Position numbers and translations under genes: made by a program. Positions 1-17,691 of a stretch of 64,000 bases of DNA are shown here, in pieces (position 1 is the first letter of the stretch; each line of letters starts with the position of its first letter). Source of the DNA: Candidatus Aminicenantes bacterium (GTDB taxonomy: Bacteria; Acidobacteriota; Aminicenantia; Aminicenantales; Saccharicenantaceae); NCBI GenBank assembly GCA_963796835.1, contig CAWCND010000022.1, positions 1-64,000 on the forward strand, given 5' to 3'. The notes below the pieces were generated by a model. The model was not told the origin of the DNA, did no database searches, and saw nothing but the letters and a program-made list of their open reading frames with translations.

Positions 1-2291
<2,291 letters not shown>

Positions 2292-2409
2292 GGTTCGAGC
2301 TGTCCTCGGAAAATCGGGTTTCCGGCCTTTCGCCGGCCCGAAAAGGCAAAATTCATCTTAGGTTCATCCCCTTGAAAAGTCAAGGAATGCGGATATACTA
2401 AGTCCGGCC

Positions 2410-3201
2410 ATGGCGATCCTGGAAGTCAAGAATCTCTCCGCAGGATACGACGGCGGCTTCGTCATCAAGGACATCTCCCTGAGCCTCGAGCCGGGAGAGT
2501 TCGTCGCCGTCCTCGGCCGGAACGGTTCCGGGAAAAGCACTCTGATCCGGGCCGTGCTGGGCCTTCTCGGGAACGTCCGGGGCGAGGTCGTCCTGGGCGG
2601 CGACGATCTTTTTCGCCTTGGCCGACGCGAGATCGCCCGGAAGATCGCCTATGTCCCCCAGCTTGCCGAGCCCGTCTTCGAGTTCACGGCCGGGGAGGTC
2701 GTCCTCATGGGTCGCTATGCCCGCCAGTCCCGGTTCGAGACGCTTTCCGCCGGGGATGCCGAGGCCGTCGACGAGGCCATGCGCCTGACGGAGGTGGCGG
2801 GCCTGCTGGGGAAAAAAGTGGGCCACCTGAGCGGCGGCGAGCGGCAGCGGGTTTTTATCGCCCGCGCCTTGGCCCAGGACACCCCAGTCCTCTTCCTTGA
2901 CGAGCCAAGCCTCCATCTCGACATCAGCTACCAGGTCGAGATCTACGCCATCCTCAAGGGCCTTCAGAAGGACAAAGGGAAGACGATCTTGGCCGCCGAG
3001 CACAACATCAACCTCGCCGCGGCCTACGCCGAACGCCTGGTTTTCCTGAAAGGCGGGGGGATCGCGGCCCAGGGCGCGCCGGCCGAAACGATCACGGCGG
3101 CCATGGTCCGGGACATTTTCGACGCGGAGGTCGATGTCAAGCCGAACAGCCGCTCCGGCCTCCCGGAGATCTCGCTCGTGACGGGAGGAAGGGGCCGGTG
3201 A
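2410..3201 (+). CDS. ABC transporter ATP-binding protein, iron-siderophore/cobalamin (FecE/BtuD) type
   Basis: Walker A GRNGSGKST, signature LSGGERQRV and Walker B LFLDEP. The stop overlaps the next start (GTGA). Confidence 0.85.
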   Translation: MAILEVKNLSAGYDGGFVIKDISLSLEPGEFVAVLGRNGSGKSTLIRAVLGLLGNVRGEVVLGGDDLFRLGRREIARKIAYVPQLAEPVFEFTAGEVVLMGRYARQSRFETLSAGDAEAVDEAMRLTEVAGLLGKKVGHLSGGERQRVFIARALAQDTPVLFLDEPSLHLDISYQVEIYAILKGLQKDKGKTILAAEHNINLAAAYAERLVFLKGGGIAAQGAPAETITAAMVRDIFDAEVDVKPNSRSGLPEISLVTGGRGR

Positions 3202-4133
3202 GCGAGAGGTCCCGCCGCGGGTCCGCCGCCTGGACAGCGGCTGCCTGGTCGATCTTCCTCCTGGTGGTCGTTCGCTCCGCCGCCGGGCAGCCCCAGTCCA
3301 TCCGCGACGACCTCGGCCGGCCCTTCCCGTTGCCCGCGACGACACCGGCGCGGATCGTCTCGATGGCCCCGAACATCACCGAGATTCTCTTCGCCCTCGG
3401 CCTGGGCAGGAACGTCGTGGGGGTCACCAGGTTCTGCGATTATCCGCCCGAAGCCGGATCCATCGCGAAAATAGGCGGGCTCGTCGACCCCAACATCGAG
3501 CGCGTCCAGGCCCTCGCGCCGGACCTCGTCATCGCTTTCCGGGGAAACCCGCTCCGGATCGTCAACCGCCTGGCCGCCCTCAAGCTGCCTGTCTTTGTCT
3601 TGGACATCGGGACCGGTCTCGATGCCCTTTACCCGCTCATCGCCAGGATCGGGCTGGTCACCCGGAGAGAAAGGGAGGCCGATGGGCTCGCGGCCGGCCT
3701 CAGGGCCAGGCAGGAGGCCGTCGAGACGGCCTTGGGCACGGTCACGGAGAAGCCCCGCGTGTTCGTCGTCCTCCGCGGCCAGGGGCTCTGGACGTGCGGC
3801 GGCGAAAGCTACCTCAACGACCTCATCGCCAGGGCCGGGGCGGTCAATATCGCGGCCGCGATGCCCAAGAAATGGGTCCTGTACAGCCCGGAGCGGATCA
3901 TCCGGGACGATCCGGACGCCATTTTCATCCTTTCCAAGTCCGAGGAGGACTTCGCGGAGGCCCGAGAGTGGCTGAGCCGCGAGGCCCATCTCGACCACGT
4001 CAAGGCAGTCGTCGGGCGCCGGATCTATATTGTCGATGAGAATTCGGCCAGCCGCTTCGGCCCGCGCCTCGTGGACGTCCTGGACCGGATGGCCCGCGCC
4101 CTCCATCCCGAGCGGTTCGGAGGAAGGCCGTGA
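3198..4133 (+). CDS. Periplasmic substrate-binding protein of an iron-siderophore/cobalamin ABC importer (BtuF/FhuD-like)
   Basis: N-terminal hydrophobic signal. RIVSMAPNITEILFALGLGRNVVGVTRFCDYP is typical of PBP class III. GTG start overlaps the ATPase stop. Confidence 0.75.
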   Translation: MSERSRRGSAAWTAAAWSIFLLVVVRSAAGQPQSIRDDLGRPFPLPATTPARIVSMAPNITEILFALGLGRNVVGVTRFCDYPPEAGSIAKIGGLVDPNIERVQALAPDLVIAFRGNPLRIVNRLAALKLPVFVLDIGTGLDALYPLIARIGLVTRREREADGLAAGLRARQEAVETALGTVTEKPRVFVVLRGQGLWTCGGESYLNDLIARAGAVNIAAAMPKKWVLYSPERIIRDDPDAIFILSKSEEDFAEAREWLSREAHLDHVKAVVGRRIYIVDENSASRFGPRLVDVLDRMARALHPERFGGRP

Positions 4134-5122
4134 GAGCGGAAACGGCCCGCCGCCTCCTTCTGGCCCTCCTCATCCTGCTTGCCGCAGCCGGCTTTCTCCT
4201 GTCTCTCCTGACCGGTCCCGTCAAGACCTCCGCCGCCGACCTGTGGGACGTCGTCCGGGGCGGGGGGACGGGCATCCAGGCCACGATCTTCATCGACCTC
4301 CGGCTCTCGCGGGCCGTCCTGGCCTTCCTGGTCGGGGCGAGCCTGGCCCTCTCCGGGGCCATCCTCCAGGGATATTTCCAGAACCCCATGGCCGACCCCT
4401 TTGTCGTCGGCGTTTCGTCCGGGGCATCGCTCGGCGCGGTTCTGGCCCTTTCCCTGGGTGTCAGCGTCGCTGTCCCCGGCTTCTCCGGGCAGGGACTGAT
4501 GGCTTTCGTTTCGGGACTGGGGATCGTCTCGTTCGTCTACCTCCTCTCCTTGAGGAAGGGCGGCTTCAAGATCGAGACCCTTCTTCTGACCGGGATCGCG
4601 GCCGGAGCGCTGGCCTCGTCCCTGACCTCGTTCCTTCTTTTTATGCGGTCGGATTCCTTCGATCAGGCCGTTTTCTGGCTCCTCGGCAGCTTCCAGCTCG
4701 CCGATTGGAAGCAGGTCGGGACCGTCGCCCCTTACTTTTTGATCTGCCTGGCCGCTTCTCTCTGGCTAGCCAAGGACATGAACCTCCTGGCCATGGGGGA
4801 TGAGACGGCCAGGGCCCTGGGCTGTCCGGTCCGCCGGGTGAGGAAGGCCTTCCTCGTCCTGTCCTCTCTCCTGGCCGCGATCTCCGTTTCGGTCAGCGGG
4901 ATCATCGGCTTCGTCGGCCTCGTCGTGCCCCATTGGATCAGGCTCCTCATAGGCCCGGACCATCGCCGGCTCTTTCCCTACGCATCCCTGGCCGGAGGGA
5001 CGTTCCTCCTCTACTCGGACCTGATCGCCCGGACCATCCTTCCCTCGGAGCTTCCGATCGGCGTGATCACGGCGGCCGTCGGTGCTCCGTTCTTCCTCTA
5101 TCTCCTCCACCAGAAGCGTTGA
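4130..5122 (+). CDS. FecCD/BtuC-family ABC permease
   Basis: About 330 aa and polytopic. FecCD-like segments (GASLALSGAILQGYFQNPMADPFVVGVSSGASLG). 4-nt overlap with the upstream gene. Confidence 0.8.
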   Translation: MRAETARRLLLALLILLAAAGFLLSLLTGPVKTSAADLWDVVRGGGTGIQATIFIDLRLSRAVLAFLVGASLALSGAILQGYFQNPMADPFVVGVSSGASLGAVLALSLGVSVAVPGFSGQGLMAFVSGLGIVSFVYLLSLRKGGFKIETLLLTGIAAGALASSLTSFLLFMRSDSFDQAVFWLLGSFQLADWKQVGTVAPYFLICLAASLWLAKDMNLLAMGDETARALGCPVRRVRKAFLVLSSLLAAISVSVSGIIGFVGLVVPHWIRLLIGPDHRRLFPYASLAGGTFLLYSDLIARTILPSELPIGVITAAVGAPFFLYLLHQKR

Positions 5123-6246: not shown

Positions 6247-7575
6247 ATGAAAGCCAGAACGACGGCCGCTCCCCGCCGGTTCCGGACCCGGCTCCTCGCG
6301 CTCGGCCTGCTGGCCGTCCTCCCTCTGGCTCTGTCCGCATTGGACAAAAAAACGGCTCAGCGGATCGACGAAGAGATCGAGAAAAACCAGGGAGAAGTCA
6401 TCAAGATCCGCCGTTTCATCCACATGAACCCCGAGCTCGGCAACCGGGAGTTCGAAACTTCGCGGCTCGTCAGCTCCAAGCTCGATACCCTCGGCCTCGA
6501 GGTCCGGACGGGAGTGGCCAAAACCGGCGTCGTGGCCCTCCTTCGCGGCGCGCAGCCCGGCGCATCGATCGCCCTCCGGGCCGACATGGACGCCCTGCCC
6601 ATCCAGGAGATGACCGGACTCCCCTACAAGTCGCTGAACCCTGGGGTCATGCACGCCTGCGGCCACGACGTCCACACCTCCATCGCCCTCGGAACGGCCA
6701 TGGTCCTCAGCACCCTGAAAGACAAGATCAAGGGCAGCGTATTGTTCATCTTCCAGCCCGCCGAGGAGGGCCCGCCCCAGGATGAGGAAGGCGGGGCCGA
6801 CCTCATGATCCGGGAGGGGGCCCTGGACAGCCCGCCCGTGAGCGGTATCGTCGGCTTCCACGTCTGGCCCGAGAACCTCGGCCAGGTCTTCGTGGCTCCC
6901 GGTTTCATCACGGGGAGCTCCGACGGGTTCCGGATCACGGTCAATGGAAAGGCCGCCCACGGGGCCCGGCCCCACGAGGGAGTGGACGCGATCGTCATCG
7001 CCGCCGAGATCGTCGAGGCCCTCCAGACGGTCGTCAGCCGGGCTGTCGACCCCACCGATCCCGCCGTCCTGACCGTCGGCACGATCCAGGGCGGGGCCCG
7101 GGCCAACATCATCGCGGACCGGGTCACTCTCGAAGGGACGGTCCGGACCCTGAGCGAGGCCAACCGGAAGAAGATCCCGCCGCTCATGGAGGCAATCATC
7201 AAGAACGTCACGGAAATGAACGGCGCGACCTACGAGTTTGAGTACAAACCCCTGCTGCCGTCCGTCTTTAATAATCCGGAGCTGACTGCCACCATGACCC
7301 CGATCCTGGGCAAGCTCCTGGGCAAGGATAACGTACTCGAATGGAAGCCCCAGCTCATCGCCGAGGACTTTTCGTTTTTTGCCCGCAAGATCCCGGGGTT
7401 CTACTTCTTCCTGGGCGTCAAGAGCCCGGGCCAGCCAAGCGCGGCGCCGCTCCACAGCCCGAATTTCAGCCCGGACGAGCGGAGCATCACCCTGGGCATC
7501 AAGATCCTGTCTCACCTCCTGCTCGACGCCCTGGAGGAGCAGAGCTCCCTCGCGACGGGCGTCCCCAAAATTTAG
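6247..7575 (+). CDS. M20D-family amidohydrolase/carboxypeptidase (secreted)
   Basis: Signal peptide. HACGHDVHTSIALG metal-binding motif. About 440 aa, M20 amidohydrolase architecture. Confidence 0.8.
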   Translation: MKARTTAAPRRFRTRLLALGLLAVLPLALSALDKKTAQRIDEEIEKNQGEVIKIRRFIHMNPELGNREFETSRLVSSKLDTLGLEVRTGVAKTGVVALLRGAQPGASIALRADMDALPIQEMTGLPYKSLNPGVMHACGHDVHTSIALGTAMVLSTLKDKIKGSVLFIFQPAEEGPPQDEEGGADLMIREGALDSPPVSGIVGFHVWPENLGQVFVAPGFITGSSDGFRITVNGKAAHGARPHEGVDAIVIAAEIVEALQTVVSRAVDPTDPAVLTVGTIQGGARANIIADRVTLEGTVRTLSEANRKKIPPLMEAIIKNVTEMNGATYEFEYKPLLPSVFNNPELTATMTPILGKLLGKDNVLEWKPQLIAEDFSFFARKIPGFYFFLGVKSPGQPSAAPLHSPNFSPDERSITLGIKILSHLLLDALEEQSSLATGVPKI

Positions 7576-10655: not shown

Positions 10656-11516
10656 CTATCTGAAATAAAGCAGCGATATCCTTAGGCCGAGCTCCCTCTG
10701 ATCGTTGGAACCGGGCGTCACCTTGGCCGGGACAAGGGTTTTATCGACCCTGATCACCAGCTCAAAATCCTTTTTGTTGCCGAGCCATTCCTTCCTGAGA
10801 GTGAAATGCCGCTCGAACTCCCCGCTCCCCGGGACAAATTCGTCCAGGGGCTTGCCGTCGATGCTGATCGTGACCTTCTGCCCAGCGGCCGGGAGGGCGG
10901 CCCGGCCGCGAAGGATGAGCAGGGCGTCGTGCCCCGGGTTGTCGATGGCCGCGCGGGCCTCCTTCGCCGTCCACCTCCACCGTTGGCCCGGGTCCTGGGG
11001 GTCGGTCTCCTGGCCGTACCAGCCGCTCATATAGACGACGACCGGGGAATCCGCCGATGGGACGACCCGAACCGTTCTGCGGAGAAGGACGAGCCCGGAG
11101 TCTCCCGTCTTGTCCGATGGCGAGGCGAGCCCGACCGTGAGTCCGAGCTTCTCCGTCCCCCTGAATCCGGGGTCGAACTCATCGATGAAGGCGGGGATGT
11201 AGACCCGCCGGGTGAAGGTGTATTCCTTGTTCGGTTCCCACTTGGAGGTCGGGACCGGCGGCTCGTATTCGTCCTGGACAAGGAGCCGCCCGCGGTAAAC
11301 GAAACGGGCAACGATCTTGTCATCCTCGGTGATCGGCGCGAGCGATGAGTCCGTCCGGACACGATAGGTCACGTCCGTGAAAAGGTTGTCGGTCAGGACG
11401 CGGACGGAAAAAGCGACGGTCAGGTCCATCCCCCGGACGCCGAACTCCTCCCGGCAGGGCCATGACAGGAGAGTGGCGAGAGCGACGAGAACGGCCAGGG
11501 CCCGCAGCTTGGTCAT
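10656..11516 (-). CDS. Secreted hypothetical protein
   Basis: N-terminal signal (MTKLRALAVLVALATLLSW). 286-aa ORF convergent with 10017-10643. No recognised motif. Confidence 0.45.
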   Translation of the reverse strand: MTKLRALAVLVALATLLSWPCREEFGVRGMDLTVAFSVRVLTDNLFTDVTYRVRTDSSLAPITEDDKIVARFVYRGRLLVQDEYEPPVPTSKWEPNKEYTFTRRVYIPAFIDEFDPGFRGTEKLGLTVGLASPSDKTGDSGLVLLRRTVRVVPSADSPVVVYMSGWYGQETDPQDPGQRWRWTAKEARAAIDNPGHDALLILRGRAALPAAGQKVTISIDGKPLDEFVPGSGEFERHFTLRKEWLGNKKDFELVIRVDKTLVPAKVTPGSNDQRELGLRISLLYFR

Positions 11517-11657
11517 GAGACGATGGACGGTCCTTTAAACGAAGATCCTCATAAAGTGGTTATTATAAACATTTTCCCTGGGGGAGTAAAGCGGGCCGGG
11601 ACATTGGAGGGTTGAAAATCGCCCCGACATGCACTAAGATAAGCGCGGTCAAAGCCT

Positions 11658-12449
11658 ATGAAAACCAAGATCAAACCCGAGATCCCGCCTTCCTCCGACC
11701 TTCCGCGTGCCGGCCGACGGGCGCCGACCCAGCTCCGGCCCGTCAGGATCACCGTCGATTACCTCGATTTTGCCGACGGCTCGGCCTTCATCGAGATGGG
11801 CCGGACCCGCGTTCTGGCGACGGCCACCATCGACGACCGAGTGCCGCCATTCCTCAAGGGCACGGGGTCCGGCTGGGTCACGGCCGAGTACGCCATGCTC
11901 CCGCGGGCGACCGAGGAAAGAACCCCGCGCGAACGGCCCGGCGGCAGGATCTCGGGCCGGACCCAGGAGATCCAGAGGCTCATCGGCCGCTCGCTCCGGG
12001 CCGTGACGGATCTCCGGTCCCTGGGCGAGAAGCAGATCATCATCGACTGCGATGTCCTTCAGGCCGACGGCGGGACCCGGGCGGCCTCGATCACGGCCGG
12101 CTGCGTGGCCTTGGGCCTCGCCCTGAAGAAGATGCTCGACCGGGGCTTCATCGACCACATGCCCCTCCGTCACCTCGTCGCCGGGGTGAGCGTGGGGATC
12201 GTCGGGGGCCGGGCCCTTCTCGACCTCGATTACGAGGAGGATTCCCAGGCTCAGCTCGACATGAACGTCGTCGAGACCGACAGAGGCGAGCTCGTGGAGG
12301 TCCAGGCCGGCGCGGAAAAGAACCCCTTTTCCCGGAAGGAGCTTCTCGACCTCCTCAAGCTGGCCGACAGGGGCGTCGGGAAGCTCGTCCAGGTCCAGAA
12401 GGAAGCCCTCAAGAAGAAGAGCATCCTCTTCATGGCCTACGGGCACTAA
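11658..12449 (+). CDS. rph: Ribonuclease PH
   Basis: FLKGTGSGWVTAEYAMLPRAT, GRTQEIQRLIGRSLRAV and DCDVLQADGGTRAASITAGCVAL are highly RNase PH-like. The N-terminus may be about 10 aa shorter than the ORF. Confidence 0.9.
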   Translation: MKTKIKPEIPPSSDLPRAGRRAPTQLRPVRITVDYLDFADGSAFIEMGRTRVLATATIDDRVPPFLKGTGSGWVTAEYAMLPRATEERTPRERPGGRISGRTQEIQRLIGRSLRAVTDLRSLGEKQIIIDCDVLQADGGTRAASITAGCVALGLALKKMLDRGFIDHMPLRHLVAGVSVGIVGGRALLDLDYEEDSQAQLDMNVVETDRGELVEVQAGAEKNPFSRKELLDLLKLADRGVGKLVQVQKEALKKKSILFMAYGH

Positions 12450-12490
12450 GAGTCGGGGGGCAACCCCCTAATCGTCCCCCCCAGCAAAAC

Positions 12491-12520
12491 TTGACATTCC
12501 GTCCCTAAATTAAATAATAT
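12491..12520 (+). promoter_or_regulatory. Candidate sigma-70 promoter: TTGACA, 17/18-nt spacer, ATAATA/TAATAT. Upstream of the flotillin gene.
   Basis: Consensus -35. AT-rich -10. AAGGAGG sits 7 nt before the ATG at 12626. Confidence 0.45.
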
Positions 12521-12625
12521 CAAGCCCTAGTAACCCCGGAAAGAAAGGCCTTCAGTCATTTACGGAGGACGTTTTTTCCCTCAACCCGCCCTCCCGGACC
12601 AGGGGCTGACTCCAAGGAGGTCGTC

Positions 12626-14039
12626 ATGAACTTTGCGTCATGGCTCATCGCCGCAGGCGCCGTCGTCGTCTTTATCGCCCTCGTCATTATCATCATGGCC
12701 GTCCAATACCGGAAGGTGGGCCCCAACGAAGCCCTCATCATCTCCGGCGGCCGGAAGCGGACGGTGACCGTGGCCGACGGCACGAGGAAAAAAGTCGGCT
12801 ACCGTTACCGCCTGGGCGGCGGGACGTTCGTCTGGCCCGGCCTGGAAAAAGTGTTCGTCCTCCCCATGGACGTCATCTCCATCCCCATCCGGACCCCGGA
12901 GGTCCTGACCCGCGGAGGCGTCCCTCTCATGGCGGAGGCGTCAGCCCAAGTCAAGGTCAATTCCTCCGAGGAGACCATCCACCTCGCCGCCGAGCAGTTC
13001 CTGGGGATCGGCCGGGACGGCATCCGGGATGTGGCCGTGAACGTCCTCGAGGGAAAGGTCCGCGAGGTCATCGGGACGATGACGGTCGAGGAGATCTACC
13101 GGGGCCGCCAGGATTTCTCGAGCAGGGTCATCGGAGCCGTCCGGGAGGATTTCAGCCGGATGGGACTCGTCATCCTGTCTTTCTCGCTGAAGGACATCAG
13201 CGACACCCAAGGCTACATCGACGCCCTGAGCAAGCCCCAGATCGCGGCCGCCAAGCGCGATGCGGCCATCGCCCAGGCCGAGACCGAGAAGGAATCCGTC
13301 ATCAAATCGTCCCAGGCGCGCAAGGAGGCAGAAGTCGCCCGCCTCCAGTCCGACGCCCAGATCGCCAAGGCCCAATGGGAGAACGAGGCCAAGAAGGCCG
13401 AGTCCCAGGTTTTCGTCAACGCCAAGAAGGCCCAGGCGGACTTCTCCTACGAGCTCGAGCGCCACCGCCTGAACCAGGAGATCAAGAAGGAAGAGGCCAA
13501 GGTCAAGCAGGTCGAGAAGGAAGAGGCCATCAAGATCGAAGAGCTCGAGATCGCCCGCAAGGGAAAGGAGCTTGAATCCACGGTCGTCAAGCCGGCCGAC
13601 GCCCGCAAGTACCAGATCAAGTCGGAAGCCGAGGCCGAGGAGTTCCGGATCGCCGCCGAGGCCAAGGGCAAGGCCGAGGCCATGAAGCTCGAGGGGCTGG
13701 CCGAGGCCGAGCGGATCAAGGCCAAGGGATTGTCCGAGGCCGAGGCCATGCTGAAAAAGGCCCAGGCCTGGGAAAAGTACACCCAGGCGGCCGTCATCGA
13801 CATCGTACATCAAGATCCTGCCCGAGCTGGCCAGGGCCGTGTCCGAGCCCCTCTCCAAGGTGGACAAGATCGTCGTCGTCGGCGGCGACAAGGAGCTCGG
13901 GACGACCAGGATCACGGCCCAGGTCGCCCAGGTCCTGGCCCAGATGCCGGAGGTCGTGAAGTCCCTGACCGGAGCCGATATCACCCAGTTCCTGAAGGCC
14001 AAGCTTTCCCCGGACGCCAGAAAAGACGAGAAGAAGTGA
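12626..14039 (+). CDS. Flotillin-like SPFH/band-7 protein (FloT/YqiK family). Single apparent +1 insertion near 13806; the C-terminal 66 aa are in the 13839-14039 frame.
   Basis: N-terminal TM. SPFH domain. Long Ala/Glu/Lys coiled region EAKGKAEAMKLEGLAEAERIKAKG. Removing one base in ATCGTaCATCAAG restores ...AVIDIVIKILPELARAVSEPLSKVDKIVVVGG... Confidence 0.8.
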
Positions 14040-14070
14040 CCGCCCGGCCGGGCGTCGAGGCAGGTGAACC

Positions 14071-16450
14071 ATGATCTCGGAAAAAGTCCAGAAGATCGGA
14101 GCATCCCCCACCCTCAAGATCTCGGCCAAGGCCAAGGCCATGAAGGCCGACGGGATCGACGTCATCGACCTGAGCGTCGGCGAGCCCGATTTTCCCACTC
14201 CGGAGAACGTCAAGGAAGCCGGGGTCAAGGCCATCCGGGCGAACTTCACCAAGTACACGGAGAACGACGGCATCCCGTCCTTGAGGAAGGCCATAGCCCA
14301 GCGCCTCAAGGAGGATGACGGCCTCGAATACAGCCCCAAGGAGATCATCGTCTCGGCGGGGGCCAAGTCGCTCCCTGTTCCACCTCGTCCAGACCCTGGT
14401 CAACGAGGGCGAGGAGGTCATCATCCCGTCTCCCTTCTGGGTCACATACCCCGAGTGCGTGAACCTGGCTAAAGGGAGGCCCGTGATCGTCCCGACCCGT
14501 GAGGAGGACGGCTTCCTCCTGACGCCGGACAAGCTCAAGGCGGCGATATCGCCGGCGACCAAGGCCCTCATCCTCAACAATCCCTCGAACCCGACCGGGG
14601 GCGCTTACGGCAAGGACAAGCTCATGGCCCTGGCCGAGGTCGTCCGCGGCGAGGACATCTACGTCATCGCCGACGAGATCTACGGCAAGCTCGTCTACGA
14701 CAATTTCAAGTTCACGAGTTTCGCCTCGCTCGGCGAGGACATCAAGAAGAAAACCATCATCATCAACGGCGTGTCCAAGGCTTATTCCATGACCGGTTGG
14801 CGGATCGGGTTCGCGGCCGGGCCGGCGGATATCATCGGCGGCATGTCCAAGATCCAGAGCCACACGACGTCCAACGCCTGTTCCATCGCCCAGAAGGCGA
14901 GCCTCGAGGCCTACGTCGGGCCCCAGCACGAGGTCCAGAAGATGGTCGCCGAGTTCCAGCGCCGCCGCAACTACTGCCTCATGCGGCTGGCCGCGGTGCC
15001 CGGCCTCTCTTGCTTCAAGCCCCAGGGCGCTTTCTACCTTTTCCCCAACGTCAGGTCGTTCTACGACAAGGAGTTCGGCGGCACTCGGATCCGGAATTCC
15101 TACGGCATGGCGTACTATTTGCTCAAAGAAGCCAAGGTGGCCATCGTGCCGGGCGATTCCTTCGGCGCGGACGATCACATCCGCCTGTCCTACGCCACGT
15201 CCATGGAGAACCTGGAAAAGAGCCTGGACCGGATCGTCGAGGCGCTGGCCAAGCTCAAGACGGCCAGGAAGGTCAAGCACGTGTCCCTCAACAATACCGT
15301 GACGAGGGTCAGGAAATCCGTGCCTGTCGAGGTCTGGGCCGACCTCCGGATGCGGGATGCCCTCGTGGCCGAGATGGACGGACACTTGGGCTATGAAGGC
15401 CGGTACGAGTGGAACGCCAACATCAATGGCGCCATCGTCCAGCTCCGGACCAACGTCGGCCACCTCAACGATTTCTGGACGGAGAACTGGCTCCCGGCCC
15501 AGCTCGAGGCCGACCTCGAGCCCCACGGGATCATCTACGCCGTCGACGGGATCGCGGGGCGGGAGCCCCGGGCCTTCTACAGCCCGGAGACCAAAACGGG
15601 GATCCTCGTCAACACGGATGGCTACGGACCCCTGCGGAGCCTGGCCCTCGGGCTGGTCATGGACATCGCCGAACGGATGTCCGGCGCCGGGGGCGCGGGA
15701 GCCGTGCGCGGCATGTCGGCGGCGGCCCAGGGCGGGGACGGGCTCATCCTGGTCGGCCCGCCGGGGACGAAGAAAACAGAGCTTTTTTTCGAGCTCCTCG
15801 AGGATGTCCGGTTCAGGCTCCAGGCGAACGACATCGTCTTCGTCCGTCTGGCCGGCGGCCGGGCGGTCGCGGACTCGGTCGAGCGGAAACTCTATCTCGC
15901 GGCGAACACGGTCGAGCTCAATGGCCGGCTCGCGCCCCTTTTCGACCGGAGCAAGTGCGAGAACGTCGTCATTCGCAAGGAGGACTGCGCGGACCTCGAA
16001 TGCCAGCGGGGCGAGGATTGCCGCCTCGACCGGGGTTCGCCGTACTGCTACAAGGCCTCCAAGGAGGCCTACGCCATGCTCGACCCGAACTGGATCGGCG
16101 GACCCGAGGCCTTCGCCAAGCGGACGAACCTGAAGTGGATCTTCCTCCTCCGGAATGACGAGACGTCTCCGGCCGTCGTCGAGCTCGCGAAAGACGAGGC
16201 CCTGCGGATCCTGGAAACCGGAGAGGCGGCCGGGGCGAAAAAGGCCTTGACGGCGGCGAAGAGCCAGCCGTTCTTCAATCCGCACCTCCTCGTCGGAGGC
16301 AGGGCGGACTCGGCCTCGGCGGGGCCCGGCGCCGGGTCACTCGACGCCCAGAGGGCCTTTTTCAGCCGCCTGCTGGACGTCGCGAAATGTTACCTCTTCA
16401 ACAGCGGCGTCGCGAAAGCGGACAGGATCAAGGACATCGTCGGAGGATAA
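14071..16450 (+). CDS. Aspartate/aromatic aminotransferase (class I PLP) fused in-frame to a ~390-aa C-terminal domain of unknown function. Early apparent frameshift near 14375.
   Basis: Residues 1 to ~400 are AAT-like: SVGEPDFPTPENVKEAG, NNPSNPTGG, SKAYSMTGWRIGF. There is no stop after ...LDRIVEALAKLKTARKVK. The extension contains LILVGPPGTKKTELFFELLEDVRFRLQANDIVFV, a P-loop-like stretch loosely resembling HprK/PEPCK-type kinase folds. Confidence 0.6.
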
Positions 16451-16497
16451 CGGGGGGGGACTCGCCTATTTTCTCCTGGGTCACGAGGCGTTTTTTC

Positions 16498-17691
16498 ATG
16501 GCCTTCCTGGCCATGACTTTCCTGGCCCTTCTGGCCGGGCTCCTCTTCATCCGGCCCCTTCAGCCCCTGTCCAAGGTCCTCCTGGGCCTGTGGATCGTCT
16601 TGGCCGCGGCGCTCTTCGGGCGGTTGAGGCTTCTCCTGAAAGACTGGTCCGTCTTCGTGGCCTTCCTTTACTTTGCCGACAGCCTGAGGGAGACCATCTA
16701 CGTCCTGACCTGCAAACTGCATCTCCCCGTTCACGCCCTTTACATCCTCAAGCTCGAGAAGGCCCTCTTCGGAGAGGTCCCGTCGGTCGCTCTCCAGGCG
16801 GCCCTCCTCCGGACCGGCCCGGCCGGCCACTTTTCCTGGCTCGAGAAAACGCTGACCGTTATTTACGGAAGCCACTTTGTCGCCTTCGTCTTCGTCGGCC
16901 TTTTTATCTGGGTCTATAGGCCGGGGGCCCTGGCGAAATACAAGGCCTCATTTTATCTCCTGATCCCCCTGGGCTTTTTCTTTTATGCCGTCGTGCCGAC
17001 GGCCCCGCCTTGGATGGCCTCCGGCCAGTTCGGGGTCCTCGCGCCTCTCGTCAGGTTCAACAGGGTCCTCTTCGATTCGACCATCCCCACTCTTACCAGC
17101 GGCTTCGACCTCAACCCTGTCTCCGCCATGCCTTCGCTCCACGCCGGCTTTCCCATCCTTTGCTGCCTCCTCCTCTGGGGCCTGTACCGCTCGAAGGCGC
17201 TCCCTTTCATCCTTTACACGTTGGCCGTCCTGTTCACGATCGTCTATACGGGAGACCACTATGTGGTGGATATCCTGGCGGGCACGGTCCTGGCCGTCTT
17301 CTCCTCCTTGATCGCCGGCCGGCTCCTGAAACGCCGGGACGGACCTTCGCGGGGAGAAGCGCGACCGTCAGCCTGGGCCGAGCTGAAAAAGCCGGCCCTC
17401 GCCGGGCTGGTCATCTTTCTGGCCGGCGTCGGCCTCAGCCAGATGAACGGGGCCCTGGTCACCCCGGGGGTCAATTTCTATGATACGAACGTTCCCCGCT
17501 TCGCCGATTTTTTCCGGAACGAGGGACGATACAGGGACAGCTTCCTGGTCCAGCTTTATTTCGGGAACCATTATCTGGCCTGGAAGGACGCGAGTTCTGC
17601 CCTCCCCTATTTCCGGAGGAGCCTGAAGCTGGCCCGGACTCCCGCAGAAACACGGGAAGCCCAGGGAAAGATCGATCTGTGCCGGCGCTAG
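16498..17691 (+). CDS. PAP2-superfamily membrane phosphatase / lipid phosphotransferase-like protein
   Basis: Multiple TM helices. SMPSLHAGFP and GDHYVVDILAG resemble PAP2 motifs 2 and 3. Annotated start taken at MAFLAMTFLALLAG. Confidence 0.5.
   Translation: MAFLAMTFLALLAGLLFIRPLQPLSKVLLGLWIVLAAALFGRLRLLLKDWSVFVAFLYFADSLRETIYVLTCKLHLPVHALYILKLEKALFGEVPSVALQAALLRTGPAGHFSWLEKTLTVIYGSHFVAFVFVGLFIWVYRPGALAKYKASFYLLIPLGFFFYAVVPTAPPWMASGQFGVLAPLVRFNRVLFDSTIPTLTSGFDLNPVSAMPSLHAGFPILCCLLLWGLYRSKALPFILYTLAVLFTIVYTGDHYVVDILAGTVLAVFSSLIAGRLLKRRDGPSRGEARPSAWAELKKPALAGLVIFLAGVGLSQMNGALVTPGVNFYDTNVPRFADFFRNEGRYRDSFLVQLYFGNHYLAWKDASSALPYFRRSLKLARTPAETREAQGKIDLCRR

Follow-up and report, generated by a model that had tools for sequence, protein, structure and literature searches.

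Aspartate aminotransferase (AspAT) converts aspartate and 2-oxoglutarate reversibly into oxaloacetate and glutamate, and oxaloacetate is in turn used by phosphoenolpyruvate carboxykinase (PEPCK). Oxaloacetate is scarce and unstable, and the node formed by phosphoenolpyruvate (PEP), pyruvate and oxaloacetate is central to carbon metabolism. A 64,000-nucleotide stretch of a Candidatus Aminicenantes bacterium genome (assembly GCA_963796835.1, contig CAWCND010000022.1, positions 1 to 64,000; hereafter the window) contains an aminotransferase gene that continues past the end of its aminotransferase (AT) domain into a second, C-terminal domain (C-domain). The locus raises the questions of whether the two parts form one protein, what the C-domain is, and what it may do beside an aminotransferase. 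Sequence and fold comparisons show that the gene encodes one conserved two-domain protein of ~792 aa, in which a subgroup-Ib AspAT is joined to a shortened paralogue of the ATP-type PEPCK.

A conserved fusion of two domains

On the + strand, the coding region falls into two overlapping open reading frames (ORFs), 14071..14472 (133 aa) and 14315..16450 (711 aa), each of which carries part of a PF00155 aminotransferase match (residues 30–101 of the first, 6.9e-11, profile positions 2–78; residues 21–307 of the second, 4.5e-58, profile positions 79–361). The aminotransferase sequence ...EALAKLKTARK reads on without a stop into ~390 further residues, which include LILVGPPGTKKTELFFELL and for which no Pfam or NCBIfam family was matched in the window ORFs. 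A preliminary description of the locus had reported this in-frame continuation into an uncharacterised C-terminal domain, P-loop-like and Cys-rich stretches within it, and an apparent frameshift near 14375, and all of these observations hold. The frameshift consists of one surplus C at 14371, as seen by alignment with three relatives from the window's own clade (L001–L003); deletion of this base yields an ORF of 792 aa, which aligns with L001 over 791 aa without gaps at 95.3% identity. A second lone 1-nt insertion, an extra A at 13802 relative to L001, splits the upstream flotillin gene into two frames. As these two isolated insertions, 570 nt apart, break neighbouring conserved genes, both are probably sequence or assembly errors, the one at 14371 being specific to the window.

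In a scan of one genome per species, queried for the C-terminal region, relatives were found to be encoded by 468 species genomes; the locus-level counts given here refer to the best 80 of these 468, all of them Aminicenantes-type metagenome-assembled genomes (MAGs) from many studies. Where the contig reaches the gene start, the AT domain and the C-domain form one uninterrupted frame of 778–816 codons, with ORFs of 780–807 aa, in 66 of 69 loci, reading through the position after ...EALAKL, and the remaining three break inside the AT part, as the window does. Protein searches recovered proteins built in this way from Zixibacteria, Calditrichota and further lineages, and the junction region is itself conserved, with N8 and T11 nearly invariant. 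The possibility of an artefact, in which a lost stop codon, an indel or a chimera in the assembly has brought two genes together, deserves next to no credence: the insertions at 13802 and 14371 do point to imperfect local sequence quality, but the lost stop considered in the preliminary description is refuted by the recurrence of the intact fusion in 66 of 69 independent species-level assemblies, produced by different studies and assemblers, and a chimera is ruled out by the same count together with the occurrence of the fusion in other phyla.

Selenocysteine or programmed recoding, which truncated database entries had brought into consideration, was likewise ruled out, as the genome loci show intact ORFs; where examined, the truncated entries are frameshifted calls or reflect a scaffold N-gap or a duplicated contig end. 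In a Zixibacteria genome labelled complete, a run of N lies just upstream of the gene (L089:~6900-7000), so that the truncated protein P0091 is a scaffold-gap artefact and not a shortened aminotransferase. The Calditrichota contig L092 contains a perfect 2921-nt inverted duplication (1486-4406 and 11502-14422) comprising flotillin and 605 codons from the start of the fusion gene, which is probably an assembly artefact and explains the truncated protein P0117.

Among 68 full-length orthologues, mean pairwise identity is 0.68 in the C-domain and 0.77 in the AT domain, and invariant columns number 67 of 367 and 63 of 395, respectively. The C-domain is thus about as strongly constrained as the AT domain, and these figures indicate strong purifying selection. 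When 1.84 billion cluster representatives were searched exhaustively with a profile, only 350 members were returned, and the family is therefore small; it includes stand-alone proteins of ~320–560 aa. In public annotation the fusion proteins are called ‘aminotransferase’ or ‘hypothetical protein’, no curated family describes the extra PEPCK-like domain, and literature searches on an AspAT–PEPCK fusion, Aminicenantes PEPCK and ‘ScmC’ returned nothing relevant.

The aminotransferase domain

The N-terminal 400 residues match solved subgroup-Ib AspATs over their full length, with E values of 1e-91 to 1e-109 for the enzymes of Phormidium (1j32), Thermus (1bjw) and Rhizobium (AatB, 6f35) and for a plant prephenate/aspartate aminotransferase (5wmh); the match to 1j32 spans residues 4–391 at 1.5e-109. 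The pyridoxal phosphate (PLP)-lysine motif SKAYSMTGWR (K236) is conserved across the 68 orthologues, and the G-x-K motif is present, GaKsslF aligning with GgKqsiF of 1j32; we take its Lys, from what is known of the Thermus enzyme, to bind the distal carboxylate in subgroup Ib. The fusion protein differs from 1j32 by a ~9-residue insertion (FYDKEFGG.R) and from the subgroup as a whole by the additional 390-aa C-terminal domain. The AT domain scores below every NCBIfam equivalog cut-off (for an orthologue, 433.5 against 617 bits for the aspartate transaminase equivalog NF004769), and aspartate specificity is for this reason strongly inferred rather than assured.

A shortened PEPCK fold

Both fold comparison and HHalign assign to the C-domain a shortened form of the two-domain PEPCK fold, in which an N-terminal domain is followed by a P-loop nucleotide-binding domain. 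In the fold comparison, the C-domain matched Trypanosoma cruzi PEPCK (score 28.8 over 337 residues), GTP-PEPCK (21.1 over 337), the Euglena complex-I accessory subunit NDUEG2 (PDB 8j9h; 18.8 over 266), which has the PEPCK fold in common with it, and pyrophosphate (PPi)-dependent PEPCK (15.9 over 352). Profile homology to the ATP-dependent enzymes (PckA; PF01293; EC 4.1.1.49; T. cruzi 1ii2, E. coli 1aq2; NF006821) is detectable. As a single sequence, the C-domain was matched to PckA by HHalign with a probability of 3.5%; the match emerged once distant stand-alone members had been added, and the resulting family profile aligned with E. coli PckA at 99.2% (E 1.7e-18, 348 columns). NF006821, an NCBIfam subfamily of PEPCK, is matched by two stand-alone members (1e-11 to 1e-14), whereas the window C-domain matches neither PF01293 nor an NCBIfam PEPCK family, and PF01293 was matched in one of 33 relatives (E 0.094); for the window C-domain the relationship shows up in profile–profile alignment only.

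The features shared with PckA are the core of the N-terminal domain, the P-loop Lys/Thr, the Asp269 equivalent and the ENV, DP.W and N[ST]G motifs. In contrast to PEPCKs of 540–610 aa, the C-domain has only ~390 aa: its N-terminal domain is much reduced, and the protein ends ~14 residues past the N[ST]G motif, where the HHalign alignment stops at PckA 461, so that the last ~80 residues of PckA (about 462–540) are missing, as they are in the entire family. The C-domain also contains a Cys-rich hairpin that PckA lacks. Five cysteines of this hairpin (C229, C239, C244, C250 and C259) are nearly invariant in Aminicenantes; they also occur in some stand-alone members, and most are missing in the Zixibacteria sequences. 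The hairpin is probably a structural metal site.

The P-loop had initially been likened to the HprK/PEPCK type. Weak matches to PF07475 (Hpr_kinase_C) do occur in 15 of 33 relatives, the best at 2.7e-6, and the spacing from the P-loop Lys to the Asp, read from the sequence, is HprK-like. However, the structural overlap with HprK/P (score 13–14) is confined to 131–147 residues of the P-loop subdomain, and the remainder of the C-domain follows PEPCK. All of the relatives' matches fall below the Pfam and TIGRFAM cut-offs (the sole bit score observed, from a stand-alone relative, is 26.1 against 33.3), the window protein itself has no PF07475 match, and the C-domain does not combine an above-cut-off match with the HprK signatures GxSGxGKS, DD and LE[IV]RG. 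The labels ScmC and HprK-related kinase A (compare TIGR04352) were rejected as merely faint P-loop matches. The resemblance is thus supported at the level of the superfamily, but the C-domain corresponds to a whole shortened PEPCK fold and not to an HprK-type module, and by these comparisons it constitutes a new family and a new architecture within the PEPCK/HprK superfamily.

A rebuilt active-site cleft

The catalytic residues of PckA were mapped through the HHalign alignment, in which correspondences near Tyr207 and Lys212 are uncertain by one position in either direction and the equivalent of Arg65 could not be placed. By these residues the family splits into a C-type, represented by 22 distant, mostly stand-alone relatives, and an AspAT-fused R-type, counted in 62 fused database proteins and in the 68 Aminicenantes orthologues. 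The stand-alone relatives keep nearly all PEPCK catalytic residues: in the C-type, Lys212, His232 and Arg333 are each retained in 21 of 22 sequences, the Asp268–Asp269 pair in ~21 of 22, and the Walker-A sequence GTGK[ST], with Gly253 and Lys254/Thr255, is kept, while the position of the Mn2+ ligand Lys213 is occupied by Ser. The stand-alone member P0196 carries an intein (residues ~209–393; PF14890, 1.5e-16) that separates the Lys and Ser of this motif (GTGK|ST).

In the R-type, the Lys212 position is Arg (60/62 fused proteins, 67/68 Aminicenantes orthologues), as is that of the Mn2+ ligand His232 (59/62 and 68/68), and the Lys213 position is again Ser (Ser123). Asp268 is replaced by Asn in 65 of 68 orthologues and is followed by Asp or Glu in all 68, so that of the Mn2+ ligands of the E. 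coli enzyme (Lys213, His232 and Asp269) only the last is retained, as Asp/Glu187. The Walker-A Gly253 gives way to Lys, Arg or Asn in 67 of 68 Aminicenantes sequences (GPPGTKKT in the window), which departs from the kinase-1a pattern G-x-x-G-x-G-K-[ST], whereas Lys254/Thr255 are invariant or nearly so. The Arg333 position (domain residue 267) varies among H, Q, R and Y, being Tyr in the window and H54/Q6/R3/Y3 in the 68 orthologues; Y118 lies near the position of Tyr207, and the full substrate-binding set Arg65/Tyr207/Arg333 was not found in the C-domain. The Arg449 position is V, A or T, and the C-terminal adenine-binding segment (the PckA Arg449 region, ~460–540) is absent. A Glu-Arg-Lys motif, which resembles the HprK signature region, is invariant in the Aminicenantes orthologues. 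In other fused lineages the P-loop decays further (GPKGMKRGS, HAPNVKKE), while both arginines, R122 and R146, stay. The PEPCK cleft of the fused clade has thus been rebuilt, with the Mn2+ ligands and Arg333 replaced, a more cationic P-loop and no C-terminal nucleotide subdomain.

The Mn2+ ligands, Arg333, Asp268 and the Walker-A Gly are needed for PEPCK activity, and the C-domain has probably ceased to catalyse the PEPCK reaction. A true bifunctional AspAT–PEPCK, in which the C-domain would take over oxaloacetate from the AT domain and turn it into PEP and CO2 with a nucleoside triphosphate, or run the reverse reaction, and so channel the unstable intermediate, would be in keeping with the whole PEPCK fold and PEPCK homology, with oxaloacetate as the metabolite shared by both halves, and with the invariant P-loop Lys/Thr and Asp269 equivalent. 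Such an enzyme is nevertheless improbable, given the exchange of His232 for Arg, Lys213 for Ser, Arg333 for variable H/Q/Y, Asp268 for Asn and the Walker-A Gly for Lys, and given the absence of the last ~80 PckA residues, which complete the nucleotide-binding domain.

Gene neighbourhood and partner enzymes

Among the 80 Aminicenantes loci, 15 carry a gene of the PEPCK_ATP family (~610 aa) on the same strand as the fusion gene and 1–250 nt, usually 13–36 nt, downstream of it, and the Calditrichota contig L092 has the order flotillin, fusion gene, PEPCK and nucleoside diphosphate kinase (NDK). These downstream PEPCKs match NF006821 at 285–295 bits and keep every PckA catalytic residue examined. 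A different arrangement is found in P0135 (L083:6001-8700; also L084 and L085), an 899-aa protein in which an R-type domain with a dead P-loop (GSSENDIA) is fused to a catalytically complete PEPCK_ATP; its contig is AT-rich and apparently archaeal. In a rough neighbour-joining tree the N-terminal domain of P0135 falls outside the AT-fused clade, and the Arg/Arg signature may therefore have arisen twice. The family is in this way linked to real PEPCK by both genome position and fusion.

The R-type domain is joined to one or the other of the two enzymes for which oxaloacetate is a common metabolite, or has the other as its neighbour. This ties it to the aspartate–oxaloacetate–PEP step and argues against its being simply a second PEPCK. 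A bifunctional AspAT–PEPCK would be redundant in the 15 species with a complete PEPCK downstream and in P0135, whereas the NDK neighbours of the family, and the lack of an adjacent PEPCK in the window's clade, would suit it.

An NDK gene adjoins family members in three unrelated contexts, namely after the PEPCK in Calditrichota (L092:8527-8940), after the fusion gene in Zixibacteria (L089:8587-9015) and before a stand-alone member (L082:4325-4825). Directly upstream of the fusion gene, a flotillin gene is present in 69 of the 80 Aminicenantes loci and in Calditrichota, a pairing (window 12626-14070; L092:10985-14422) that is conserved from one phylum to another. The genes around the fusion in the window encode ComEC, RNase PH, flotillin, a PAP2 protein and PlsC and offer no metabolic hint, and the 64 kb contain no second PEPCK or aminotransferase. 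The PAP2-family gene downstream, taken at its longest ORF (16387-17691), shares the last 64 nt of the fusion gene, and its true start probably lies further downstream than 16387. The features of the locus are collected in Table 1.

Table 1. Positions of the fusion gene, its predicted functional sites and the adjoining flotillin gene in the window.
Feature	Position	Strand	Evidence or remark
Flotillin (SPFH/Band_7) gene	12626..14039	+	PF01145 1.2e-29; stop 31 nt before fusion-gene start
AspAT codons 1–100, first frame	14071..14370	+	PF00155 6.9e-11; 97% identical to L001 residues 1–100
Surplus C causing frameshift	14371..14371	+	Alignment with L001–L003; deletion restores 792-aa ORF
Rest of subgroup-Ib AspAT domain	14372..15271	+	PF00155 4.5e-58; orthologue's AT domain matches 1j32 at 1.5e-109
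PLP lysine K236 in SKAYSMTGWR	14777-14779	+	Motif conserved in 68 orthologues
Truncated PEPCK-fold domain, R-type, ~390 residues	15272..16447	+	Stop codon at 16448-16450
Arg, domain residue 122, at PckA Lys212 position	15635..15637	+	R in 67/68 orthologues
Arg, domain residue 146, at position of PckA Mn2+ ligand His232	15707..15709	+	R in 68/68 orthologues
Modified P-loop GPPGTKKT	15755..15778	+	K168 68/68, T169 67/68, position 167 non-Gly 67/68
Asn-Asp at PckA Asp268–Asp269 position	15827..15832	+	N 65/68; D/E 68/68
Glu-Arg-Lys motif	15881..15889	+	68/68 orthologues; aligns with PckA FEGGCYAK segment (HHalign)
Cys-rich hairpin insertion, five Cys	15956..16048	+	Insertion relative to PckA in HHalign

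A possible role at the oxaloacetate–PEP step

The preliminary description had proposed that the fusion couples transamination to a second, possibly phospho-transfer, activity. The coupling finds support in the PEPCK operon partner of 15 Aminicenantes species and Calditrichota, which ties the domain to the aminotransferase through oxaloacetate; simple phospho-transfer is weakened by the replaced Mn2+ ligands, Arg333 and Walker-A Gly, by the absent C-terminal nucleotide subdomain and by the complete PEPCK nearby. The reading that we favour, with a confidence that is about evenly balanced, is that the C-domain serves as a PEPCK-derived, anion-binding accessory module that links AspAT to the oxaloacetate–PEP step. 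Its cleft would form a metal-free, Arg/Lys-rich pocket in which oxaloacetate, PEP or a ligand with a phosphate group binds. The module might regulate AspAT, or it might tie AspAT physically to the true PEPCK, and such coupling would allow the interconversion of aspartate, oxaloacetate and PEP to run as one unit.

Precedents for such a module exist in NDUEG2, a non-catalytic truncated PEPCK fold (PMC10884005), and in malic enzymes with a non-catalytic phosphate-acetyltransferase (PTA)-like domain, which shows no independent activity and is dispensable for malic-enzyme activity (PMC8100219). The malic enzymes are an analogy of logic only: an enzyme of the PEP–pyruvate–oxaloacetate node is extended at its C-terminus by a domain with homology to another metabolic enzyme, but the folds and enzymes differ, and there is no homology to the C-domain.

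Several observations weigh against a purely accessory role. In Aminicenantes, neither the pocket residues nor the P-loop Lys/Thr vary, which suits a working catalytic site no less than a ligand sensor, and the NDK neighbours hint at nucleotide turnover. L001–L003 have no adjacent PEPCK, and as the 64-kb window contains none either, a partner PEPCK is hypothetical for this organism. The looseness of the alignment around Tyr207, Lys212 and Arg65 counts in the same direction.

Some of these observations would also suit an active enzyme that performs a different chemistry on the PEPCK scaffold, for instance a metal-independent oxaloacetate decarboxylase or tautomerase, a kinase that phosphorylates a carboxylate or enolate substrate from PPi or a different donor, or a protein kinase/phosphorylase of the HprK kind that modifies the AT domain or a partner. 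There is conservation and no decay among the replacement residues, and the domain as a whole is under strong purifying selection; the cationic P-loop is kept, with K or R at position 168 in 60 of the 62 AT-fused members; and the weak Hpr_kinase_C matches, the intein, which marks the Walker A of a stand-alone member as an important site there, and the recurring NDK neighbours all point the same way. This alternative is nonetheless rather unlikely, because the gene context yields no candidate substrate beyond the oxaloacetate/PEP node, because the P-loop is lost in P0135 and badly degenerate in P0121 and the Zixibacteria proteins while the rest of the domain is kept, and because the HprK match is confined to the P-loop subdomain. 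It is also improbable that the R-type domain performs PEPCK-like chemistry without the canonical Mn2+ site, with arginines in place of the metal and possibly a phosphoryl donor other than ATP.

Implications

More than 400 species, from uncultured phyla of which little is understood, have a strongly conserved PEPCK-derived module on their AspAT; in others the module is fused to a true PEPCK or has the gene for one as its neighbour. If the module acts as an adaptor or sensor, it would provide a clear bacterial case of a pseudoenzyme paralogue that organises an aspartate–oxaloacetate–PEP unit; if it is catalytic, it would represent a variant of PEPCK free of the metal site. Metal-free PEPCK-like catalysis, were it to be confirmed, would mean that a single polypeptide converts aspartate to PEP, or fixes CO2 into aspartate, with oxaloacetate channelled between its halves, and would amount to a new catalytic solution in the PEPCK superfamily and a new PEP–oxaloacetate route in Aminicenantes, Zixibacteria and Calditrichota. 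In either case, the module defines a family that databases label just ‘aminotransferase’, and the protein is a part of central metabolism that is conserved in several uncultured phyla but has gone unannotated.

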